NCBI RefSeq assembly: GCF_056746865.1
Contig: NZ_CM163382.1
Length of the DNA: 64,000 bases
Strand: one strand, 5' to 3'
This document shows positions 4,229 through 45,627 of the stretch, in pieces. The notes below the pieces were generated by a model. That model searched no databases, was not told the origin of the DNA, and worked only from the letters and a program-made list of their open reading frames with translations. A program made the translations under genes and the position numbers. Every line of letters starts with the position of its first letter. Position 1 is the first letter of the stretch.

Positions 4229-4867
4229 TTACATGAAGAATGGCTTATCGCCATCAGTCCCGGGCTGATTGATGCCTATATTCTCACCAATGTGTTTCTC
4301 AGGTTTATCGATGATATCTGTAATTAATGCTGCGACACTCTTACGTGATACGATCGTACCTTTGAATGGTTCATTGCGTGAGGTAAGCTCATAATCAATA
4401 ATATCTTCATCGGTCAGCCAGGCAGGGCGAAGAATTGTATATTCCAGTCCAGAAGCCTCAATTGCATCCGCAGCCCTGCGGAATGGTTTTAGGGGCTCAC
4501 CAATAACTGCATTATTCCATTCGCCAAATTTTCCTGGAACTTCATCATAAATACCGAGGGAAAGAACAAAGATCAGACGTTTAACATCACAGGCTTTCAT
4601 CGCAGCGATCACTGAATTTGCCTGAATATCTAAATCTTCCCCCGTAAGGTTGGCATACACAACATCCTGTCCCTGCATGGCCTGCTTCAGTGCCGCATGA
4701 TTCAGTACATCCCCCATAATAATCTTGCTATTAGTTGGATAGGGTTTGTGGATTTTTGCTGGCTGACGGGCAAATAAAGTTTGTTTAATGGTTTGTTTAT
4801 CTGCCAGTTGATTAATCACATGGCGGGCTATCTGACCGCCAGCACCAAGAATCAGTACATTTTTCAT
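4229..4867 (-). CDS. ymjC: NAD(P)-binding NmrA/SDR-like oxidoreductase, 212 aa, uninterrupted
   Basis: N-terminal Rossmann motif ILGAGGQIARHV; position between mpaA and ycjY; symbol assigned by synteny and is less certain than the product class. Confidence 0.7.
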   Translation of the reverse strand: MKNVLILGAGGQIARHVINQLADKQTIKQTLFARQPAKIHKPYPTNSKIIMGDVLNHAALKQAMQGQDVVYANLTGEDLDIQANSVIAAMKACDVKRLIFVLSLGIYDEVPGKFGEWNNAVIGEPLKPFRRAADAIEASGLEYTILRPAWLTDEDIIDYELTSRNEPFKGTIVSRKSVAALITDIIDKPEKHIGENIGINQPGTDGDKPFFM

Positions 4868-35431: not shown

Positions 35432-35613
35432 AAATTTTACTGGCTGCGTTGACGTCATCTTTTATGCTGGTTGGCTGTACGCCTCGCATTGAAGTCGCTG
35501 CACCTAAGGAACCGATCACTATCAATATGAACGTTAAAATTGAGCATGAGATCATCATCAAGGCAGACAAAGATGTCGAAGAGCTGCTTGAGACTCGTAG
35601 CGATCTTTTCTGA
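35428..35613 (+). CDS. ynbE: Small lipoprotein YnbE, 61 aa
   Basis: lipobox MLVGC; translationally coupled to ydbH. Confidence 0.8.
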   Translation: MKILLAALTSSFMLVGCTPRIEVAAPKEPITINMNVKIEHEIIIKADKDVEELLETRSDLF

Positions 35614-35617
35614 GGCG

Positions 35618-35944
35618 ATGATGAAGAAAACATTACTTCTTTGTGCGTTTCTTGTTGGGCTGGTAAGCAGCAATGTAATGGCATTGACTCTGGATGAAGC
35701 CAGAACTCAGGGGCGGGTAGGTGAAACATTTTATGGTTATCTGGTTGCGCTGAAAACAGATGCTGAAACGCTGGAATTAGTAAAAGATATTAATGAAGCT
35801 CGTAATCTGAGTTACCAACAATTGGCAAAGCAAAATAATGTATCCACTGATGAGATAGCAAAATTGGCAGGGCAAAAAATGGTTGCTCGCGCGAAGCCGG
35901 GAGAATATGTGCAGGGGATTAATGGAAAATGGCTGCAAAAATAA
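35618..35944 (+). CDS. ydbL: Periplasmic protein YdbL (DUF1318), 108 aa
   Basis: ORF 35540..35944; start set to internal Met (MMKKTLLLCAFLVGLVSSNVMA signal peptide) for 108 aa. Confidence 0.8.
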   Translation: MMKKTLLLCAFLVGLVSSNVMALTLDEARTQGRVGETFYGYLVALKTDAETLELVKDINEARNLSYQQLAKQNNVSTDEIAKLAGQKMVARAKPGEYVQGINGKWLQK

Positions 35945-36369
35945 TTTCATATCCATATCCATATTCATTATGTTGCGCCATTTTGTGAATATTTAAGGGA
36001 AAATAAGTTCTGGACTAAGGCGATTTTTATTTGCATCTATTGAATTGTTATAAGTCCGATATAGGGGAGTGTCTATTTTATTTTTGATGGTTTTTTATGT
36101 GTAATTATAATTGTAAGAAATGTTATATTATTTAGTATTTACTGGGTGTATTGTTTTTTAATGCCTTAACCTCTTATTAAATATCATTTAAGTTGAATTG
36201 ACTTCAACGGATAGTATAAATTATTAGAACATCACATATTTTTGATTGGTTCTTTATTTATATTTCTTTCGTGAATATAAACACCAATCATGGTCTTGCG
36301 TTCCGTCAAAAAGGCCCGCTTTTATTTTTGTCGACTGGCGTGCAACGCTCTATTTCTAAGGAAATATAA

Positions 36370-39300
36370 ATGCAAAGGAAAAAATTGTTGTCTGTGTGTG
36401 TGGCGATGGCATTGAGCGGTCAGACATGGGCAACTGATACATCGATCCTGGATATAACTGATGACACCCGGAAATCCAGCAAGATCACATGTCCGGCGAA
36501 TATTCATTCTATTAGCAAAGAGCAGTTAGCTAAATTACCATCAGAATGTCGGGATTCTGATGACAGCGCCGTAATGAGCTGGACTGCAGCTGGCCTGGTT
36601 GCAGTCGTTACAGGAGCCGCGGTGATGGCGCTTAATGATGGTGATCATCATGACAGTTCAGAACCAGATGACGGTGGTGATACACCTGTTCCACCAGATG
36701 ACGGTGGTGATACACCTGTTCCACCAGATGACGGTGGTGATACACCTGTTCCTCCAGATGACGGTGGCGATACACCAGTTCCACCAGACGATGGTGGCGA
36801 TACACCAGTTCCACCAGACGACGGTGGTGATACACCTGTTCCTCCAGATGACGGTGGCGACGTCACTCCACCAAAAGAGCCCAAAATCTTCAATAACAGT
36901 GTCACATTCGACGAAGACAAAGGCACGCTGCAAATTCGCAATGCCACCTTTACCTACAGCAAAAACAGTGATGGAAGTTACACCCTGACGGCTGAAGATG
37001 GCCGAACCTCTATTGTGCAGGGCTGGGATGTCGACACCGATGCCAATACGGTAGAAATTACCGGCGTGAATAACCTTGGCGGTATGACGTGGTGTTACGG
37101 TAAAGACGGCATTATCTATATCACCAAAACCGTCGGCGCAACGGTGGATGACCCCGCGAACAGCAACGTATTTAACCTCAGCGATGCGGTGCTCACCGAC
37201 CAGGGCGGTAATGCCGCGCTGAATGGCGCGACGGTGATTGAAATAAACGGCAGCAGGATCGCCCTTAATAACGACGGTGATATTTCTGCTACGGGAAAAG
37301 ATTCTGTGGTTGTGGCGATAACCGGAAACGATATTACCGTTAACAATAACGGCCATATGGTTGTCGATGGCGGCACAGCGGGCGTGGTTAACGGCGATCG
37401 TGCAATCCTGAATAACCGCGGTGATGCAGTGATCACTAACGGCGGCACGGGTGTCATTGTGACGGGTGACAACGCGGTTATCAACAACATGGGGCAAAGC
37501 GATATTGATGGCGACAACTCGGTATCGGTAAAAGTTGCAGGAAACGCAACCAGAATCAGAATGGAAGGCGGGATCAATGTCAGCGGTGGCGCGCATGGCA
37601 TTGATGCCACCGGTGATAATAACGAAGTCAGCAACAAGGGCAACATTTCGGTGGTGGATGCGCATTCCACGGGCGTGCTGCTGAACGGCGATCGCGCGTC
37701 ATTCATTAATATGGGTGATATTAACGTTAGCGGAGGTGCAGCGGACGATCACTCTAATGGTGTGCAGATCAACGGCGATAACAGTACCTTTATCAACGTT
37801 GGAGATTTAAATGCCGACGACAGGGCGACCGGGGTGAAAATTAACGGTGACGCCAGCGACATTGCCCTGGCCGGGGCGATGCATGTCGGGGATTTTTCCA
37901 CCGGGCTGGAGGTGATGGGTAAAAACAATGATCTGTCGTTGTCCACCAATATGATGGATGTCACCGGGAAACAGTCCACCGGGGTGACCATTACAGGTGA
38001 TGATAATACCATTGATATCACCGGTGATATGGTCGTTGATCAAAACTCTGTCGGGGCGAAAATTGTCGGCGATCGCGTTTCGTTGCAACAGAAAGGTGAT
38101 ATTACCGTTAACGGTGCGGGGCACGGCGTTGAAGTCAGCGGTAGTAAGACGACAATCAATAATCAGGGCAAACTGACCGTAAAAGATCAAGACTCAATCG
38201 GTATCGTTATCACCGGAGATGACGCGCAATTTACTACCGTGGGTGAGATTGATGTCTCGCTGAACGGTACGGGTGTTGCGATCAGCGGCGATCGTGAACA
38301 AGTGAATTTGAGCGGTGATATAAATGTCATTCAGGAGCGTGACGGCAGCGGTACTTTCCAGGGCGGAACGGGCATCAGCATAATGAGCAACGACAGCAGT
38401 ATGCTGTTGACGGGAAACATTAATGTGACGTCCAGTATGGGGGACCAACCGTCCACCTCACCCCAGTCGTTAACCGGCGTTACCATCGAGGGGGAAAACA
38501 ATACTGTCGATCTGGAAGGCGACATCAATATTACTGTCGATTCGGATTACCTGGGGGATGAAAACAGTCTTTACGGCGTGGTTGTTTTGGGTACAAACAA
38601 CACCATCAATCTCGATGGTGGTATCAATATCTCTGGTGATAGTGGTGGACATACTATCAAAGGTGTGCAGGTAACAGGAAATAATACCGTCAATATAAGT
38701 GGTCATTCCGTAATGAATACCCGACAGATATTGGGATCCTTCTCTCTGATTTCGGTGGCTGATGGCGGGAATGTCATATTTGATGAAAACGCGATAACCG
38801 AGATTCAGAGTTCAGTGAGAGATAGTGACTATCTTTTTTTCGATGCATCGTTAATTGTTGCTACGGGAAACCAGTCTGTTATTCAGAACAACGGCATTAT
38901 TAATACAACCGATGCTCAAGAATTAATGATGGCGAATTCGGGGGCGCAAGTTGTCAATGCCGGGGTGATTAATATCAGGCCAGATGCTGAATCACACACT
39001 TTCTTTGCTGGAATGATGGCAAGAAGCGATGACTCGCAGGCAAAAAATGCCTCCGGAGGAACAATCAATCTGACATCCATTACCCGGCCTTTTAGCAGCG
39101 GAGGATTTAACGAGCGCCCGATCAAATGGTATCACAACACGGGTTATGCCTTGTTGGCCAGTAATTACGGATCGGTAATCAATGAAACAGGAGCAACCAT
39201 TAATTTGCATGGTGCAGGAACCTATGGTGTTTCCGCTTCAAAAGGAACGGCGACCAATGCGGGCGAGATAAATGTCGACGGCTTTGTTCCAATAGTAGAT

Positions 39301-42189
39301 GAAAACGGTAATATTATTGATGAAACTTACTGGCAGACCAATTCCGTATATCTGATGGGGGGCGGGATGTTGGCAGGTTCAACGGATACCGGCGACGGTG
39401 ATGCTAAAGCGGTGAATACCGGTATCATCAACGTTAAGAATGAAGGCTTCGGCATGCTGGCGATGAACGGTGGGACCGTTGTAAACCAAGGGACAATCAA
39501 TCTCACCGCCGATGAGGGCGTGACGAAGCAGCAAGATAACCAACTGTTCGCGATGGGAGCCATTCAGGGTGGTCTGGCGATTAATGACCAGGATGGGGTT
39601 ATTAATATTAACACTGATATTGGCCAGGCGTTTTATAAAGATGGCACCGGCACCATTCTCAACTATGGAAAAATTAATCTTTTCGGTAATCCAATGGATG
39701 AAAGTGATTCCCACATTGGCGTTACGCCGGATGACAAAGATATTCTCAGTGAGCTGTCTGGCAGCGGCGAGAGCATCAGTAAAACTACAACTAGCGACGG
39801 TTTTATCGCAGTTAATAACCTGGCAAACTATGGCGACGAAACGCTTAACGGCGACGTTATAGCAAATGGCTGGATATTCAACCAACCTGATGCCAGCCTA
39901 ACAATCAACGGCGAACTGAGCGTAAACCAGGGGTTGGAAAACAGTGGTCACCTGGATGTTGACAGCATTAACAGCAAAACCACGATATATAACCGTGAAA
40001 CAGGGAGCATAACAACCGATCTGCTGACGTTGAATGGCGCGGTTTCCTTCTTTAATGAAGGCGAATTTAATGGTTCAATTACCGGAGACAGCTACCAACA
40101 GAATGTGGTGAATACCGATGAAATGACGGTGACCGAAGATGGCCACTCACTCGTCAACGGAAGTTTCCTGTTCTTCAATGAGGCTGGCGCGACCCTGACA
40201 AATAGCGGTAATGCGGTAACGGGCGGGGAAAACGCGATTATTCATGTAACCAGAACCAGTGATTCTGTTTCGCAGGTTAACCGTGGCACCATCACGGCCA
40301 CAAATGGCTATAGCGCAATCAAAACTGAAAATACTGGCTCGAACAGTAACGGGAAATGGATTTGGAATACGGAAACAGGAGTGATAAATGGTATTAATCC
40401 TGCTGCACCGTTGGTTGATTTAGGACGAGGTTATAACTTTGCTAACGCTGGCGTTATTAATGTTCAGGGCGATAATGCAGTGGGCATCAGTGGCGGCACA
40501 ACCAGCTATGTTGTCCAGTTGGTGAACAGTGGCATCATTAATGTGGGTACTGAGCAGGGGCAACTGGATGGAACCAACGGCGAAGGTTTAATTGGTATTA
40601 AGGGCAATGGTCGGGAAACGACAATTAATAACACGCAAACGGGTGTGATTAATGTCTATGCCGATAACTCCTGGGCGTTTGGTGGGCAAACGAAAGCCAT
40701 CATTAACAACGGTGAAATTAATCTGCTGTGTGACACCGGATGCGATATTTATGCTCCAGGAACGACGGGGGCGCAAAACGATCACAACGGTACTGCGGAT
40801 ATTACCGTACCAGAGGCATCAACCACGCCGCCACAAGGTAATGTTCCAACGCCACCTGTCGATTCAAATGCACCGCAACTGCTGAGCAACTATACCATTG
40901 GTACCAACAGCGACGGGAGTTCGGGTACGCTCAGCGCGAATAACCTGGTTATTGGCGACAACGTGAGTGTTAACGCCGGGTTTAGTGCAGGAACTGCGGA
41001 CACCACCGTTGTCGTTAACGATGTATTCAAAGGCGAAAACATCAGCGGTGTGGATAACATCGTTTCCTCTACTGTTGTCTGGAACGCTAAAGGCAGCACC
41101 GATGCCAGCGGCAACGTTGACGTCACTATGAGCAAAAACGCTTATACCGATGTGGCGACCGATGCTTCGGTGAATGACGTCGCGAAAGCACTGGATGCGG
41201 GTTACACCAACAACGAGCTGTATACCAGCCTGAACGTCGGCACGACTGCCGAACTGAACAGTGCCCTGAAACAGGTCAGCGGTAGCCAGGCGACCACGGT
41301 ATTCCGCGAAGCGCGCGTGCTAAGCAACCGCTTTAGCATGCTGGCGGATGCCGCACCGAAAGTGGGTAACGGTCTGGCGTTCAACGTTGTTGCGAAAGGC
41401 GATCCGCGCGCGGAGCTGGGGAACAATACCGAGTACGACATGCTGGCATTGCGTAAAACCATCGACCTGAGCGAAAGCCAGACGATGAGTCTGGAGTACG
41501 GTATCGCGCGCCTCGATGGCGACGGTGCGCAGAAAGCGGGTGATAATGGCGTTACAGGCGGTTATAGCCAGTTCTTTGGCCTGAAACATCAGATGTCCTT
41601 CGACAACGGCATGAACTGGAATAACGCATTGCGTTATGACGTTCACAACCTTGACAGCAGCCGTTCGATTGCATTTAGCAACACAAACAAAACGGCTGAT
41701 ACCGACGTGAAGCAGCAGTACCTGGAGTTCCGCAGCGAAGGGGCGAAGACTTTCGAACCGAGCGAAGGACTGAAGGTTACGCCATATGCGGGTGTTAAAC
41801 TGCGTCACACACTGGAAGGTGGCTATCAAGAGCGCAATGCCGGAGACTTTAACCTGAATATGAACAGTGGCAGCGAAACGGCGGTGGACAGCATCGTCGG
41901 GTTGAAACTGGATTACGCAGGTAAAGACGGCTGGAGCGCTAGCGCTACGCTGGAAGGCGGGCCGAACCTGAGCTACGCGAAGAGCCAGCGTACGGCAAGC
42001 CTGGCAGGCGCAGGCAGTCAGCACTTTAATGTCGATGACGGTCAGAAGGGCGGCGGCATCAACAGCCTGGCAAGCGTCGGCGTGAAGTACAGCAGCAAAG
42101 AAAGTTCGCTGAATCTGGATGCTTACCACTGGAAAGAGGACGGCATCAGCGATAAAGGCGTGATGCTGAACTTCAAGAAAACGTTCTAA
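36370..42189 (+). CDS. ydbA: Large autotransporter (type Va) adhesin-like protein, 1939 aa, uninterrupted
   Basis: signal peptide, six full DDGGDTPVPP decapeptide repeats, long Gly/Asn/Thr-rich beta-helix-like passenger, C-terminal approx 280-aa beta-barrel ending ...VMLNFKKTF. Confidence 0.85.
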   Translation: MQRKKLLSVCVAMALSGQTWATDTSILDITDDTRKSSKITCPANIHSISKEQLAKLPSECRDSDDSAVMSWTAAGLVAVVTGAAVMALNDGDHHDSSEPDDGGDTPVPPDDGGDTPVPPDDGGDTPVPPDDGGDTPVPPDDGGDTPVPPDDGGDTPVPPDDGGDVTPPKEPKIFNNSVTFDEDKGTLQIRNATFTYSKNSDGSYTLTAEDGRTSIVQGWDVDTDANTVEITGVNNLGGMTWCYGKDGIIYITKTVGATVDDPANSNVFNLSDAVLTDQGGNAALNGATVIEINGSRIALNNDGDISATGKDSVVVAITGNDITVNNNGHMVVDGGTAGVVNGDRAILNNRGDAVITNGGTGVIVTGDNAVINNMGQSDIDGDNSVSVKVAGNATRIRMEGGINVSGGAHGIDATGDNNEVSNKGNISVVDAHSTGVLLNGDRASFINMGDINVSGGAADDHSNGVQINGDNSTFINVGDLNADDRATGVKINGDASDIALAGAMHVGDFSTGLEVMGKNNDLSLSTNMMDVTGKQSTGVTITGDDNTIDITGDMVVDQNSVGAKIVGDRVSLQQKGDITVNGAGHGVEVSGSKTTINNQGKLTVKDQDSIGIVITGDDAQFTTVGEIDVSLNGTGVAISGDREQVNLSGDINVIQERDGSGTFQGGTGISIMSNDSSMLLTGNINVTSSMGDQPSTSPQSLTGVTIEGENNTVDLEGDINITVDSDYLGDENSLYGVVVLGTNNTINLDGGINISGDSGGHTIKGVQVTGNNTVNISGHSVMNTRQILGSFSLISVADGGNVIFDENAITEIQSSVRDSDYLFFDASLIVATGNQSVIQNNGIINTTDAQELMMANSGAQVVNAGVINIRPDAESHTFFAGMMARSDDSQAKNASGGTINLTSITRPFSSGGFNERPIKWYHNTGYALLASNYGSVINETGATINLHGAGTYGVSASKGTATNAGEINVDGFVPIVDENGNIIDETYWQTNSVYLMGGGMLAGSTDTGDGDAKAVNTGIINVKNEGFGMLAMNGGTVVNQGTINLTADEGVTKQQDNQLFAMGAIQGGLAINDQDGVININTDIGQAFYKDGTGTILNYGKINLFGNPMDESDSHIGVTPDDKDILSELSGSGESISKTTTSDGFIAVNNLANYGDETLNGDVIANGWIFNQPDASLTINGELSVNQGLENSGHLDVDSINSKTTIYNRETGSITTDLLTLNGAVSFFNEGEFNGSITGDSYQQNVVNTDEMTVTEDGHSLVNGSFLFFNEAGATLTNSGNAVTGGENAIIHVTRTSDSVSQVNRGTITATNGYSAIKTENTGSNSNGKWIWNTETGVINGINPAAPLVDLGRGYNFANAGVINVQGDNAVGISGGTTSYVVQLVNSGIINVGTEQGQLDGTNGEGLIGIKGNGRETTINNTQTGVINVYADNSWAFGGQTKAIINNGEINLLCDTGCDIYAPGTTGAQNDHNGTADITVPEASTTPPQGNVPTPPVDSNAPQLLSNYTIGTNSDGSSGTLSANNLVIGDNVSVNAGFSAGTADTTVVVNDVFKGENISGVDNIVSSTVVWNAKGSTDASGNVDVTMSKNAYTDVATDASVNDVAKALDAGYTNNELYTSLNVGTTAELNSALKQVSGSQATTVFREARVLSNRFSMLADAAPKVGNGLAFNVVAKGDPRAELGNNTEYDMLALRKTIDLSESQTMSLEYGIARLDGDGAQKAGDNGVTGGYSQFFGLKHQMSFDNGMNWNNALRYDVHNLDSSRSIAFSNTNKTADTDVKQQYLEFRSEGAKTFEPSEGLKVTPYAGVKLRHTLEGGYQERNAGDFNLNMNSGSETAVDSIVGLKLDYAGKDGWSASATLEGGPNLSYAKSQRTASLAGAGSQHFNVDDGQKGGGINSLASVGVKYSSKESSLNLDAYHWKEDGISDKGVMLNFKKTF
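36667..36870 (+). repeat. In-frame 30-bp tandem repeat array inside ydbA (six full units plus a degenerate seventh)
   Basis: gatgacggtggtgatacacctgttccacca repeated with synonymous variation; encodes DDGGDTPVPP. Confidence 0.9.
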
Positions 42190-42208
42190 TTTTTAGCATG
42201 TGATACAC

Positions 42209-42242
42209 AAACCGCAATGCTGATACAGGTTGCGGTTTTTTA
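42209..42242 (+). terminator. Rho-independent terminator downstream of ydbA
   Basis: aaccgcaa-tgctgatacagg-ttgcggtt hairpin followed by TTTTTT. Confidence 0.7.
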
Positions 42243-42396
42243 TTGCCGGATGCGATGCTTTAGGCGTTTTGTTTTGGTGTCTTCAAGGATAACAGAGCAA
42301 CTCATCCAGTAATCTTGTTTACGCCTTCGCATTATTTATCTCTTTTCGTTTCTATACTGATTTTTCTTAATCCGTTTTATTACAGGGCAGGGTGCG

Positions 42397-43257
42397 ATGA
42401 GCAGCAATACATTTACTCTCGGTACAAAATCCGTTAACCGTCTTGGTTATGGCGCGATGCAACTGGCAGGTCCTGGGGTTTTTGGCCCCCCAAGAGATCG
42501 CCACGTCGCTATAACCGTGCTGCGTGAGGCGCTGGCATTGGGCGTCAATCACATTGATACCAGCGACTTTTATGGTCCGCACGTCACCAATCAGATTATC
42601 CGCGAAGCGCTTTATCCTTACTCTGACGACCTGACAATTGTCACTAAAATTGGTGCGCGGCGTGGAGAGGACGCATCCTGGTTGCCCGCATTTTCTCCGG
42701 CAGAGCTGCAAAAAGCGGTGCACGATAATCTACGTAATCTCGGGCTGGACGTACTGGATGTGGTTAACTTGCGCATTATGATGGGGGATGGTCATGGCCC
42801 AGCGGAAGGATCGATAGAAGCCAGCCTGACCGTGCTGGCAGAGATGCAACAACAAGGCCTGGTAAAACATATTGGCCTAAGCAACGTCACACCGACGCAG
42901 GTTGCAGAGGCGCGCAAGATTGTCGAAATCGTCTGTGTGCAGAACGAATACAACATTGCTCATCGTGCTGATGACGCAATGATTGAAGCTTTGGCTCGTG
43001 ACGGCATTGCCTACGTGCCGTTCTTTCCGCTCGGGGGCTTTACGCCGCTGCAATCTTCCACGCTTTCCGATGTTGCTGCGAGCCTGGGTGCAACACCAAT
43101 GCAGGTGGCGCTGGCGTGGCTGTTACAACGTTCACCGAATATTTTGCTGATCCCAGGGACGTCTTCTGTTGCGCATTTACGGGAGAATATGGCTGCTGAA
43201 AAATTGCATCTTTCTGAGGAAGTGTTGTCTACGTTGGATGGTATTTCGCGAGAATAA
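42397..43257 (+). CDS. ydbC: Aldo-keto reductase family oxidoreductase, 286 aa
   Basis: AKR fold motifs; synteny. Confidence 0.85.
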   Translation: MSSNTFTLGTKSVNRLGYGAMQLAGPGVFGPPRDRHVAITVLREALALGVNHIDTSDFYGPHVTNQIIREALYPYSDDLTIVTKIGARRGEDASWLPAFSPAELQKAVHDNLRNLGLDVLDVVNLRIMMGDGHGPAEGSIEASLTVLAEMQQQGLVKHIGLSNVTPTQVAEARKIVEIVCVQNEYNIAHRADDAMIEALARDGIAYVPFFPLGGFTPLQSSTLSDVAASLGATPMQVALAWLLQRSPNILLIPGTSSVAHLRENMAAEKLHLSEEVLSTLDGISRE

Positions 43258-43320
43258 CGAATATACAAAAGGGAAAGATGCATTTCCCTTTTGTTTCTTT
43301 TTTAATGGCATGGAGTGCAT

Positions 43321-45627
43321 ATGTTTAAGCCCAGGATTTGCAGCTGGATAGGTTTACTTCCCCTGTTTATGCTGAGTCTTCCAGTACAGGCGGAACTTCG
43401 ATGTGTTGCAAATGCAGTTGATATTGAACCATTTTTTTCTGCGGCTACCGCTGAAGATAAACAACAAGTTGAACAAGCTATCAACAGTAGCGTGAATCTT
43501 GTCCCCTTCGGTTTATCTGCATCGGACTGGAAAGTGCATCGTGGCGATTTAGTGGTAGAAGGTAATATAGAGAGTAATCAAAAATTGATTGTTCTTGGCA
43601 ATTTGACAGTCAAAGGTAATATTTCCACTTTCTCTCTTTCTAATCCATGGGTTATTCTCGGTAACGTGACGGCAACGAATATAGTTACGGATTCACCACT
43701 GTTAATTACCGGTTCGATAAATGCAAGTGGACTGGTATTTATCGACTCATATTACGATAATCCGTCTACGATTAAGGGGAGTATTAATGCGCGTGGGATA
43801 TTTATCAATGACATAATTGCACCTGTTGTTGCGTCTTCGACAAATAGTGAATTCATGGTCCGTGCGAGTGACAAAAATGACACTGAAAATGTCAAAAAAG
43901 CGCTGATGATAATAAATCCTGATGCATATTATTGGGGCCTAATAAATGATGAAGATGCTCTGAAAGAAATTTTTAAGCGAAGCAATATTCGCATGGCAGG
44001 GAATGTCTGTAATCTGATGAAAAAAGAAGCGCTGTTTCGCCCTAAGCCTTCTCCTGAGTTAGTGCAGGAATTACAAATGCTGGATGAAGGCAACGTTGCT
44101 GCATTTGAAGGACGAGACATTGCGACATTTGATCTTGCCATAATGCGAACTCTCCCAAGGCTTAAAGGAATTTCAGCTAACCTACGCAAACAACTTATTA
44201 ATAGCAATGATGAACAAACGATTGAAAGTATGGCGAGATATATGCCTGACAATGAGATTCTGGAGTTGACCGATCAGCAATTGGGTTACCAGCCTGTTGT
44301 TCTGGGGTTGCTCGACCGTGAACCGCTCTCTGTCGAAATAATGACGCGAATGAGTCATCTACCTGATGGTGTCGGTCCGTTGAATCTTGCGCTACGTGAA
44401 AATCTCCCTCTGGATATCGTCATGACTCTGGCGAAAAGAGATTGGGATATGATCATTCAGGAGCTTTATAAAGATGCGTGGTTATTGCCCGAATCCATTA
44501 TTGATGGCTATATCCGCAGTGATGATTCCTCTATTCGTCAGGTCGGTGCTGGAGGACAACTCAGCTACAATCAGGCAATGCAGTTGGCGAACGATTCATC
44601 AAACGATGTTGTCACAAGCTTAGCGTCAAAGCTGGCAGAGATGAAACACCATGGTCAATTGTTGCGGATGACGCCACAAGAGAGTGACAAAATAGCAGTA
44701 TATTTACACCAAAAATTCGAGAATGACGATGATCTAATACGTGTGTTATTTTTAGCATTGCCAGATAACTTACAGTTTAATTTTGTTAAAAAGATGGAGA
44801 AAAAATTTCCTGCCTATTTTTGCTGTGGGGATATGCAGGTAATTCACTCTGACGCTGCTTTACAACGGTTATTGACACGTTTCAACGATCCTGCGGGGTG
44901 GAGTAATCTGGCGAAAAATCAGTATCTGAGTACGGCGATGAAACAAAAAATTTGGCATCGCGCTTTATCGCATCGAAAAAATAATCCGAAAGCAGATTCT
45001 GCAGCATATGAAACCAGCGCTGATATGATTTTGTCTGAGCTGATTAGCCACGGTGAAGTTGATGACCAGATGCTATTAAATGCCACCTCTCTGATACGTT
45101 CGGAAGGCTGGGACTTTTTAGAGAGTGCATTAGTTAGTTGGGATAATTTACCCGCTGTTGTCCTCAAGGAATTACAGCAAAATATGCCACGCAATGATAT
45201 TTGGGCGAAGTTTTTTCTGAAGCAGGAAAACAGCTCTCGTGCGCAGGTTAACGAAGCGTTACGTGTTTATTATGCACTAGACCCCGATGCGTTAGCACAA
45301 CTGGATGTACTGGCAAAACAACCGGATCGTATATGGTGGAGTACGCTGGCGAAAAGCAATCTTACATTTTTCAAGTTCGGCGCACTTAACAATCGCCATA
45401 CACCGTCTGCGGCACTGGCGGCAGAAATTGATCCCGAGTGGTGGATTATGGCGATGAATAATCCCCGTTTTCCAGTTGATGTATTGAAGGCGAGGCTGAA
45501 ACGTGATCCTTTGCTGGCGTTAGAGCTTGTTAACCCTGAACTGGATTTAGTTCGGCAGCTGGCGCTTAACGGTAAGACGCGCGCAATACGGGAACAAGCG
45601 ATGAGAAAACTTGATGAGTTGCATTGA
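43321..45627 (+). CDS. ydbD: Uncharacterised secreted protein YdbD, 768 aa
   Basis: ORF 43315..45627; start set to internal Met for 768 aa; signal peptide ...LSLPVQA. Confidence 0.8.
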   Translation: MFKPRICSWIGLLPLFMLSLPVQAELRCVANAVDIEPFFSAATAEDKQQVEQAINSSVNLVPFGLSASDWKVHRGDLVVEGNIESNQKLIVLGNLTVKGNISTFSLSNPWVILGNVTATNIVTDSPLLITGSINASGLVFIDSYYDNPSTIKGSINARGIFINDIIAPVVASSTNSEFMVRASDKNDTENVKKALMIINPDAYYWGLINDEDALKEIFKRSNIRMAGNVCNLMKKEALFRPKPSPELVQELQMLDEGNVAAFEGRDIATFDLAIMRTLPRLKGISANLRKQLINSNDEQTIESMARYMPDNEILELTDQQLGYQPVVLGLLDREPLSVEIMTRMSHLPDGVGPLNLALRENLPLDIVMTLAKRDWDMIIQELYKDAWLLPESIIDGYIRSDDSSIRQVGAGGQLSYNQAMQLANDSSNDVVTSLASKLAEMKHHGQLLRMTPQESDKIAVYLHQKFENDDDLIRVLFLALPDNLQFNFVKKMEKKFPAYFCCGDMQVIHSDAALQRLLTRFNDPAGWSNLAKNQYLSTAMKQKIWHRALSHRKNNPKADSAAYETSADMILSELISHGEVDDQMLLNATSLIRSEGWDFLESALVSWDNLPAVVLKELQQNMPRNDIWAKFFLKQENSSRAQVNEALRVYYALDPDALAQLDVLAKQPDRIWWSTLAKSNLTFFKFGALNNRHTPSAALAAEIDPEWWIMAMNNPRFPVDVLKARLKRDPLLALELVNPELDLVRQLALNGKTRAIREQAMRKLDELH

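Follow-up and report, generated by a model that had tools for sequence, protein, structure and literature searches.

An intact BigA/YdbA-family autotransporter gene with an in-frame, length-variable 30-bp repeat array at the E. coli ydbA locus

In E. coli K-12, ydbA (b4492) is annotated as a pseudogene of three fragments separated by IS2D and IS30C, in agreement with the IS2/IS30 split stated in an earlier sequence-only reading. In the window analysed here, i.e., a stretch of 64,000 nucleotides from contig NZ_CM163382.1 (assembly GCF_056746865.1), the ORF listing gives a single 1939-codon frame with an ATG start (36370..42189, + strand, stop codon included), and re-translation revealed no internal stop, as that reading had claimed. 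The 1939-aa product is identical to the RefSeq CDS product WP_001189075.1, belongs to a 781-member cluster, and occurs unchanged on at least 1000 public contigs, a count that is a lower bound. Over aa 462-1939 it aligns with the NCBIfam auto_BigA profile (NF033178) at 2061 (2060.9) bits, short of the curated cut-off of 3400 bits; under that rule the protein would be classed as a BigA homologue, with 59% identity to Salmonella BigA, and not as BigA. The name BigA is nevertheless used in some database records for such proteins. A phmmer search of the whole protein against PDB sequences returned no match. On the strength of the intact frame, the RefSeq identity, the family profile and the evidence given below, we consider it highly likely that the gene is intact and monocistronic and encodes a type Va (classical) autotransporter of the BigA/YdbA family, which is restricted to Enterobacterales. 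It is located at the ydbA locus between ydbL and pdxI, and its product would be displayed at the cell surface and presumably serve as an adhesin.

The protein opens with a Sec-type signal peptide (aa 1-21, MQRKKLLSVCVAMALSGQTWA, then TD; 36370..36432, + strand), identified by inspection from a basic n-region MQRKK, a hydrophobic core and a T-W-A↓T site, and the same layout is common to 20 family members, supporting the signal peptide proposed earlier. It is followed by a conserved Cys-loop (aa 41-60; 36490..36549, + strand), which the homologue alignment describes as C-P-x(5-7)-L-[ST]-x-[EQ]-x3-K-L-P-x2-C; C41, P42, L56 and C60 are invariant across the 20 homologues, down to ~30% identity, and AF2 places short helices here with a pLDDT of ~59. 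Next comes a Gly/Ala-rich hydrophobic segment (aa 70-88, SWTAAGLVAVVTGAAVMAL; 36577..36633, + strand), defined by hydrophobicity and conservation, which is the most hydrophobic 19-mer within the first 200 aa, retains W71 and G75, and carries chains of at least three small-xxx-small steps in 17 of the 20 homologues. Its summed hydrophobicity is marginal on the Hessa scale (+0.4 to +4 kcal/mol), and AF2 confidence drops to ~30 over the segment, the N-terminal 170 residues not being resolved by the model. Two other readings of this region were rejected: the hydrophobic segment as the true signal peptide, given the acidic region that precedes it and the lack of a conserved cleavage site, and a lipoprotein suggested by a lipobox-like L-S-A-C at residues 7-10 of the K-12 protein, since this Cys lacks conservation among family members and the stretch ahead of it is not long enough. 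A stop-transfer role for the hydrophobic segment would be at odds with export.

Downstream, the folded part begins with the small beta domain BigA_N (aa 174-252; 36889..37125, + strand; Pfam PF25784, E 5.8e-26), for which AF2 predicts strands over aa 172-255 at a pLDDT of ~90. The passenger (aa ~256-1471; 37135..40782, + strand) is predicted by AF2 and Foldseek to be a right-handed parallel beta-helix; aa 266-480 and 1329-1471 were modelled, as regular three-strand coils with pLDDT >90 and 70-87, respectively, and the middle is extrapolated from these two parts. A beta-helix in both modelled parts thus favours the long beta-helix-like passenger claimed from sequence. Every one of the best Foldseek matches of the N-terminal model is a beta-helix protein, TibA and Ag43 among them, but the matches are weak (E >= 0.013), so that the fold class of the passenger is drawn from the model as such and from the kind of protein matched. 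A second proline-rich linker (aa 1485-1502, ...EASTTPPQGNVPTPPVDSNAPQ...; 40822..40875, + strand), apparent from sequence and with an AF2 pLDDT below 50, connects the beta-helix with the BigA_beta sandwich domain (aa ~1507-1591; 40888..41142, + strand; Pfam PF25783, E 1.7e-24; AF2 strands aa 1503-1589). AF2 helices at aa 1602-1660, where the linker in the barrel lumen would sit, are of low confidence (mean pLDDT about 30-50).

Pfam, AF2 and Foldseek identify the C-terminus (aa ~1670-1938, last residues ...KKTF; 41377..42183, + strand) as the translocator, a beta-barrel of ~12 strands in the outer membrane. The PF03797 profile check, run on the earlier claim of a C-terminal barrel, bore it out: the Pfam Autotransporter domain matches aa ~1713-1910 with an E value of 2.6e-18. 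AF2 builds ~12 long strands in a C-terminal model of moderate confidence (pLDDT 63), and Foldseek matches this barrel with the beta-domains of EspP (E 7.6e-7), EstA, AaaA, NalP (E 9.3e-6, TM 0.57) and BrkA, over a range of 7.6e-7 to 1e-4. The terminal sequence ...MLNFKKTF closes with an aromatic residue, Phe, as is typical of a beta-signal; most homologues also end in Phe, with a single extra Arg in three of the sampled ones.

Ahead of BigA_N lies a 30-bp tandem array, read in frame as an acidic, proline-rich spacer of variable length (36667..36873, + strand). TRF detects a period of 30 with 6.5 copies at 36663..36857 (93% matches, score 327), and the in-frame reading gives six full DDGGDTPVPP units (36667..36846) and a degenerate seventh, DDGGDVTPP (36847..36873); the six full plus one degenerate unit reported before, at 36667..36870, were therefore correct within 3 nt. 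Five nucleotide variants are found among the six full units, in the order a a b c d e, and all encode one and the same decapeptide, so that the repeats do differ only at synonymous positions, as had been claimed. Across strains, genes otherwise at least 99% identical carry 5, 6, 7, 8, 9 or 10 copies, and in the seven genomes read at the nucleotide level (6-10 copies) the array follows the pattern a(n)bcde with n = 2-6. Because all of this variation sits in the run of identical 5' 'a' units, it bears the signature of slippage that the sequence-only reading had suggested. Moreover, an alignment in one place over the array was obtained for only 52 of the 185 genomes that matched, a figure that points to widespread length polymorphism. 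The array thus lies in frame and differs in copy number between near-identical strains, as a coding VNTR does; a literature search for a VNTR in E. coli ydbA found nothing relevant.

Tandem repeats that lie close to the start of a gene for a surface protein and vary in copy number between strains could also be taken for a contingency switch, by which expression of the autotransporter would alternate between on and off. However, the 30-bp unit is a multiple of three, so changes in the array alter spacer length and cannot shift the frame, which rules out a frame-shifting switch. The length variants observed (5-10 copies) differ by exactly 10 aa and are all in frame, the 21-bp units of a sister allele are likewise in frame, and the array, which lies inside the CDS, shows none of the shifts in reading frame or promoter spacing of a simple-sequence contingency locus. 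We therefore regard a switch as scarcely credible; the array confers length variation rather than on/off phase variation.

Repeats of this kind are known from relatives of the gene. Salmonella enterica BigA shares the architecture end to end, i.e., signal peptide, Cys-loop, hydrophobic segment, D/H-rich patch, PPDDGGD-type repeats, BigA_N, beta-helix, BigA_beta and barrel, and is 59% identical overall to the window protein (barrel 85%, passenger 39-67%). Salmonella bigA contains the VNTR/MLVA locus STTR3, with 27/33-bp units between signal peptide and passenger (PMC5183578). STTR3 resembles the window array as a polymorphic in-frame repeat at the homologous position, but it is a composite of 27 and 33 bp whereas the window unit is a uniform 30 bp (10 aa); in the Salmonella protein the repeats read PPDDGGDVTP(TP). 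Sister alleles in E. coli and E. albertii (e.g., P0070 and P0027; strain CUVET19-1396) occupy the same locus in the same order, ydbL, autotransporter gene and pdxI, and are 87-88% identical overall and 84-95% in the passenger, yet their N-terminal 98 aa are only 44% identical and their upstream region is non-homologous. Their repeat is a 7-aa PDDGGNT (21-bp) unit, of which the sampled E. coli proteins have 3 to 15 copies, with more than 15 in L011 and in one E. albertii protein. Bordetella pertactin, too, has proline-rich in-frame passenger repeats whose copy number varies between strains, but these lie within or adjoining the beta-helix, whereas the window repeats form a spacer ahead of the first folded domain; to our knowledge, the two sets of repeats have no sequence relationship. 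The BigA/YdbA family is already catalogued and the copy-number behaviour matches that of the Salmonella bigA repeat, which makes the finding real but ordinary.

The relation to K-12 ydbA differs along the gene. When the K-12 fragments are rejoined they form an open 2020-aa frame that is 41.9% identical overall to the window protein; by segment, amino acid identity is 99% in the barrel, 74% over aa 1501-1660, 30-37% in the passenger and 44% in the N-terminal region. At the nucleotide level, the window gene is 94.7% identical to the rejoined K-12 gene starting at gene nt 4705 (window 41074), and 5' of that point blastn against the K-12 gene found nothing except one 98-nt piece at 76.5% identity. 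From there, a 3' module of 1.3 kb defined by nucleotide identity and comprising the BigA_beta end, linker, barrel, intergenic region and pdxI start (41074..42400, + strand) is common to K-12 and most E. coli; indeed, for the majority of 5137 genomes the match starts only at query position ~5175, equivalent to window ~41074. The passenger is closer to Salmonella BigA than to K-12 YdbA, and along the gene the identity profile has a mosaic character, as does dS (0.09-0.70). Window position 41074 marks the recombination boundary, and the locus is a recombination mosaic that combines a conserved translocator with one out of a set of highly divergent passenger/N-terminal/promoter cassettes.

The description of the gene as an uninterrupted ydbA consequently stands in part. 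Its frame is intact, and it shares with K-12 the locus, the last ~1.1 kb including the barrel, the 3' neighbour pdxI and the overall domain order; the collinear passenger homology expected of an orthologue is absent. In K-12, moreover, a ~19-kb fea/tynA/paa cluster lies between ydbL and ydbA, whereas in the window ydbL is directly upstream; the K-12 spacer is proline-rich but has no clean tandem array, the upstream regions are unrelated, and the K-12 copy is IS-interrupted while the window copy is intact. The ydbD frame of the window is open as well, in contrast to strain 2017C-4173W12, which carries IS5 in ydbD.

The intergenic region from the ydbL stop to the autotransporter start (35945..36369, + strand), presumed to hold the promoter and regulatory sites, spans 425 bp with a G+C of 0.289 (200-bp minimum 0.24) against 0.501 in the gene, which agrees with the AT-rich region of approx 400 bp noted before. 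Of 5426 complete E. coli genomes, 141 contain it at >=99% identity, in each case flanked by ydbL and the autotransporter gene, and blastn detected no homology between it and the upstream regions of K-12 or the sister allele, which are likewise AT-rich (G+C 0.252 and 0.339, respectively). Within it, a candidate sigma-70-like promoter (TTGATG-16-TATAAT; 36084..36111, + strand) matches the consensus at 10/12 positions by pattern, and is weak evidence because the region holds fewer such matches than shuffled sequence. A Shine-Dalgarno-like AAGGA can be read 7 nt before the ATG (36358..36362, + strand), and 20 nt past the stop codon the sequence reads as an intrinsic-terminator-like hairpin (AAACCGCAA...UUGCGGUUU) followed by a U-run (42209..42244, + strand), with an RNA fold of -16.7 kcal/mol (z -2.96). 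A consensus terminator scan missed this hairpin, probably for misfit to its stem and loop rule, and an Rfam scan of 35500..42600 gave no match. Together, the AAGGA, the promoter-like site and the hairpin would frame a single-gene unit.

Such an upstream region raises the possibility that the gene is a cryptic relic, open by chance and permanently silenced or non-functional like the K-12 copy, with its repeat variation no more than neutral drift. H-NS has been reported to repress autotransporter genes in UPEC (PMC3966885), and, judged from the G+C of 0.29, silencing of the H-NS type is a reasonable inference here, the region being of the kind that H-NS binds; laboratory silencing, however, does not equal non-function. 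[quoted passage not shown] Against this, dN/dS relative to the sister allele is 0.15 overall, which argues for a functional gene, with 0.20-0.28 in the passenger and 0.03-0.04 over aa 1501-1939 (BigA_beta-linker and barrel). The barrel keeps its 99% amino acid identity to K-12 despite 94.7% nucleotide identity, every observed length variant is in frame, and the identical protein recurs on those 1000 or more contigs. We hence consider a relic unlikely; the gene is under purifying selection.

For an active gene, the domain order suggests how the product would work. The leader would direct the protein through Sec, the C-terminal 12-strand barrel would insert into the outer membrane, and the ~1450-residue passenger, i.e., the N-terminal module, the proline-rich spacer, BigA_N, the long beta-helix and the BigA_beta sandwich, would be exported and displayed. 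Slipped-strand mispairing between the identical 5' units, or unequal recombination between them, would alter the length of the spacer. The analogy to AIDA-I-type passengers suggests that the displayed part is probably an adhesin or aggregation factor: AIDA-I, Ag43 and TibA likewise carry a long right-handed beta-helix on a 12-strand barrel, and TibA and Ag43 are among the top structural matches, although these matches are the weak ones given above. BigA_N, BigA_beta and the N-terminal module of Cys-loop and hydrophobic segment, on the other hand, are specific to the BigA/YdbA family as compared with AIDA-I-type proteins. In the literature searched, the adhesin status of BigA goes no further than candidate or annotation (PMC13228587, PMC8011750).

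The passenger might instead be an enzyme, a toxin, or a membrane-active tip acting through its N-terminal hydrophobic segment. The adhesin role is a putative one, a conserved Gly/Ala-rich small-xxx-small segment does sit at the distal end of the passenger, and the autotransporter VacA inserts into membranes by means of a hydrophobic N-terminal region with GxxxG spacing. However, the Pfam scan of all 1939 aa found no enzyme or toxin domain, the beta-helix matches include the self-associating adhesins TibA and Ag43, and the hydrophobicity of the segment is only marginal. In addition, Celik et al. describe the passenger of BigA as AIDA-I-like and group its barrel with NalP-type barrels (PMC3419190). 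A non-adhesin passenger thus seems quite improbable, and an adhesin or aggregation factor remains the preferred reading. A related and somewhat speculative idea, which we would give a small but real chance, is that the N-terminal module, with its disulfide-loop motif, small-xxx-small segment, D/H-rich patch and variable proline-rich tether, constitutes a previously undescribed autotransporter element, either a membrane-inserting or self-associating anchor at the tip of the beta-helix or a Sec-pausing device that delays release, whose reach the VNTR would tune. This hydrophobic module is the only part of the gene that could hold a surprise.

The practical value of these findings is modest. In E. 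coli, "ydbA" is best taken as the name of a locus, at which a conserved translocator is combined with several very different passenger cassettes, and this diversity means that presence/absence surveys and K-12-based annotation mislead. The E. coli repeat behaves like Salmonella STTR3 and could mark strains within the lineages that carry this allele, and the intact, selectively maintained alleles would be a sensible starting point for work on adhesion and biofilm formation.

The gene at 36370..42189 (+) constitutes one open reading frame that starts with ATG and translates without internal stop into 1939 aa, the single frame claimed by the sequence-only reading, whose coordinates and content are correct; its observation is confirmed and its interpretation largely right. 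E. coli 2017C-4173W12 matches the region at 100% identity across 6.5 kb, and its corresponding coordinates carry WP_001189075.1, an [quoted passage not shown] with ydbL and pdxI as neighbours. The exact protein is found on at least 1000 public contigs and falls in a 90% cluster of 781 members, with names including “autotransporter adhesin BigA” and “BigA/YdbA N-terminal beta-barrel domain-containing protein”. Pfam profiles match the protein at aa 174-252 for BigA_N (E 5.8e-26), at aa ~1507-1591 for BigA_beta (E 1.7e-24) and at aa ~1713-1910 for the Autotransporter beta-domain (E 2.6e-18). The product is a member of an already catalogued family, yet its NCBIfam NF033178 (auto_BigA) score of 2061 bits lies under the curated cut-off of 3400 bits, and therefore it is not BigA by the curated rule. 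A sequence search of the PDB with the 1939-aa protein returned no relative. In RefSeq, some 2698-aa K-12-type YdbA autotransporters beside pdxI are named “EntS/YbdA MFS transporter” (genome matches H3, H15 and H18; proteins P0117 and P0118), apparently because annotation confused YbdA with YdbA, and the BigA/YdbA-type family carries at least five further product names. Several long ORFs run antisense to the gene, e.g., 36658-37665 (-), the longest of 335 aa; they have no support as genes, and none is annotated in the RefSeq record examined.

AlphaFold2 modelling of aa 1-480, using a 20-sequence family alignment (mean pLDDT 75), gave low confidence for aa 1-170, a small beta domain at aa 172-255 and a regular beta-helix with three strands per turn at aa 266-480 (pLDDT >90). 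Foldseek finds weak matches to this model (best E 0.013), every one a right-handed beta-helix protein; the autotransporter passengers TibA and Ag43 are among them. The model of aa 1320-1939 (pLDDT 63) shows, in order, the beta-helix end, a proline-rich linker, a beta-sandwich (aa 1503-1589), low-confidence helices and a ~12-strand barrel. This second proline-rich linker (40822-40875, aa 1485-1502), non-repeating (TTPPQGNVPTPPVDSNAPQ) and predicted to be disordered, sits between the beta-helix and the BigA_beta sandwich. The modelled barrel matches the EspP, EstA, AaaA, NalP and BrkA translocators (E 7.6e-7 to 1e-4), and the last residue of the protein is Phe. Thus, the models, which for the passenger beta-helix cover aa 266-480 and the helix end from aa 1320, support the proposed beta-helix-like passenger and C-terminal beta-barrel. 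For BigA, Celik et al. describe an AIDA-I-like passenger and a NalP-type barrel (PMC3419190).

Two IS elements, IS2D and IS30C, divide K-12 ydbA (b4492) into three annotated fragments, in agreement with the IS2/IS30-split gene of the sequence-only reading. The rejoined fragments form an open 2020-aa frame that is just 41.9% identical to the window protein, with identities of 44% over the N-terminal 98 aa, 30-37% in the passenger, 74% at aa 1501-1660 and 99% in the barrel. Nucleotide homology to K-12 sets in from gene nt 4705 (window 41074) and continues at 94.7% through the barrel into pdxI. Upstream of the gene, the window allele, a sister allele of 87-88% identity and the K-12 allele share no mutual homology; all three upstream regions are AT-rich (G+C 0.289, 0.339 and 0.252, respectively). 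Moreover, in K-12 a ~19-kb feaR-feaB-tynA-paaZ...paaY cluster separates ydbL from ydbA. It is absent here, and directly past the ydbL stop at 35944 come the AT-rich region and then the autotransporter gene (junction region 35621-36369); ydbL likewise adjoins the autotransporter gene in the sister allele of CUVET19-1396. Given the segment identities, the start of homology at 41074 and the differing upstream regions, the description “uninterrupted ydbA” is correct for the locus and translocator, and wrong if read as the K-12 gene in intact form.

Among 5426 complete E. coli genomes, just 184 cover at least 80% of the gene with its flanks; the majority of genomes match no more than its last ~1.3 kb. 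The sister-allele protein P0070 is 44% identical to the window protein at the N-terminus and 84-95% in the passenger, whereas the homologous protein P0106 is 95-100% identical over the N-terminus and repeat and only 30% at aa 1101-1500. Synonymous divergence between the window and sister alleles ranges from 0.09 to 0.70 by segment. Other alleles combine the pieces differently through recombination. In K-12-type passengers, as seen in P0116 (2698 aa) and in the rebuilt K-12 YdbA, long units of ~100 aa recur nearly unchanged (GNTTVDGQGSTGTEIAGNNAVVNQDGELDVSGGGHGIDITGDSATVDNKG...), and lengths vary between 2020 and 2698 aa; the locus has here a second repeat polymorphism, on a larger scale. On the 3' side of pdxI, ydbD is open in the window (43315-45627, 770 aa) and interrupted by IS5 in 2017C-4173W12, despite the 100% identical autotransporter region; the window thus represents another strain that shares this allele.

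Tandem Repeats Finder reports a 30-bp unit in 6.5 copies at 36663..36857 (93% matches, score 327). Counted in frame on the + strand, the array comprises six full DDGGDTPVPP units (36667..36846) and a degenerate DDGGDVTPP (36847..36873), as first described. The full units show five nucleotide variants in the order a a b c d e. Each encodes the identical decapeptide, so that they differ, as claimed, at synonymous sites alone. Within the 90% cluster, protein lengths of 1929, 1939, 1949 and 1969 aa correspond to 5, 6, 7 and 9 full decapeptides. Six further complete genomes, with pre-array N-terminal sequence identical to that of the window (searched 5' stretch about 99-100% identical), carry 7 (PRO_A-1401 and GN06156), 8 (TUM20902), 9 (550 and FDAARGOS_1289) or 10 (98232) full copies. 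The pattern in the genomes read is a(n)bcde throughout (n = 2-6), indicating that change is confined to the run of identical 5' units, as slipped-strand mispairing or unequal recombination predicts; the 5-10 copies across strains bear out the copy-number variation proposed earlier. Of the 185 genomes matching the 5' kilobase, only 52 give a single alignment that spans the array, and hence length polymorphism is common. On/off phase variation by the array is ruled out, since every copy-number variant keeps the reading frame; the array represents spacer-length variation.

At the matching site, the sister allele carries a different 21-bp unit, PDDGGNT, in 3 to 15 copies, with a full ladder of proteins from 1910 to 1994 aa in 7-aa steps, and in more than 15 copies in the CUVET19-1396 locus (L011, 838-6792) and the E. 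albertii protein P0108, so that different unit types have arisen at one position in different alleles. In more distant members of the family the corresponding place is taken by repeats of DPIPDPTP, DPVDPV or NGGDNGD, and in Salmonella by PPDDGGDVTP(TP); the E. coli polymorphism thus has a well-known Salmonella counterpart (STTR3; PMC5183578). In the literature library searched, no paper deals with the E. coli array.

The intergenic region (35945..36369) spans 425 bp with a G+C of 0.289 versus 0.501 in the gene, matching the approx 400-bp AT-rich region noted before. On the + strand lie an SD-like AAGGA 7 nt 5' of the ATG, a TTGATG-16-TATAAT pattern match (36084..36111) and a terminator-like hairpin with a U-run (42209..42244; -16.7 kcal/mol, z -2.96). 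A Nei-Gojobori comparison with the sister allele gives a dN/dS of 0.15 for aa 169-1939 as a whole, with 0.20-0.28 within the passenger and 0.03-0.04 at aa 1501-1939; the barrel is 99% identical to K-12 in protein and 94.7% in DNA. Collectively, these signals and divergence values fit a maintained, monocistronic gene. We infer that it is expressed and that its product is displayed at the surface and acts as an adhesin; the papers found go no further than listing BigA as a candidate or annotated adhesin (PMC13228587, PMC8011750). Silencing of the AT-rich region is plausible by analogy with UPEC, where autotransporter genes are reported as repressed by H-NS (PMC3966885).

Between the signal peptide and the repeat, a Cys-loop motif and hydrophobic segment (36490-36633, aa 41-88) are kept in 20 of 20 aligned members, with C41, P42, L56 and C60 of the Cys-loop invariant. 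The Gly/Ala-rich segment of ~19 residues, with conserved W71 and G75, is the most hydrophobic 19-mer within the first 200 residues, has small-xxx-small chains of at least three in 17 of the 20 members, and falls in the low-confidence part of the AlphaFold2 model (aa 1-170). A strong stop-transfer sequence is incompatible with autotransporter export; on the Hessa scale, the segment's free energy sums to only a marginal +0.4 to +4 kcal/mol, in keeping with translocation through Sec rather than a stop-transfer role. Searching this N-terminal module against 1.84 billion representative proteins retrieved just 64 clusters, the named ones all from Enterobacterales (Escherichia, Salmonella, Citrobacter, Enterobacter, [Enterobacter] lignolyticus, Budvicia and Rahnella). 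Of the whole locus, only this module holds some promise of novelty.
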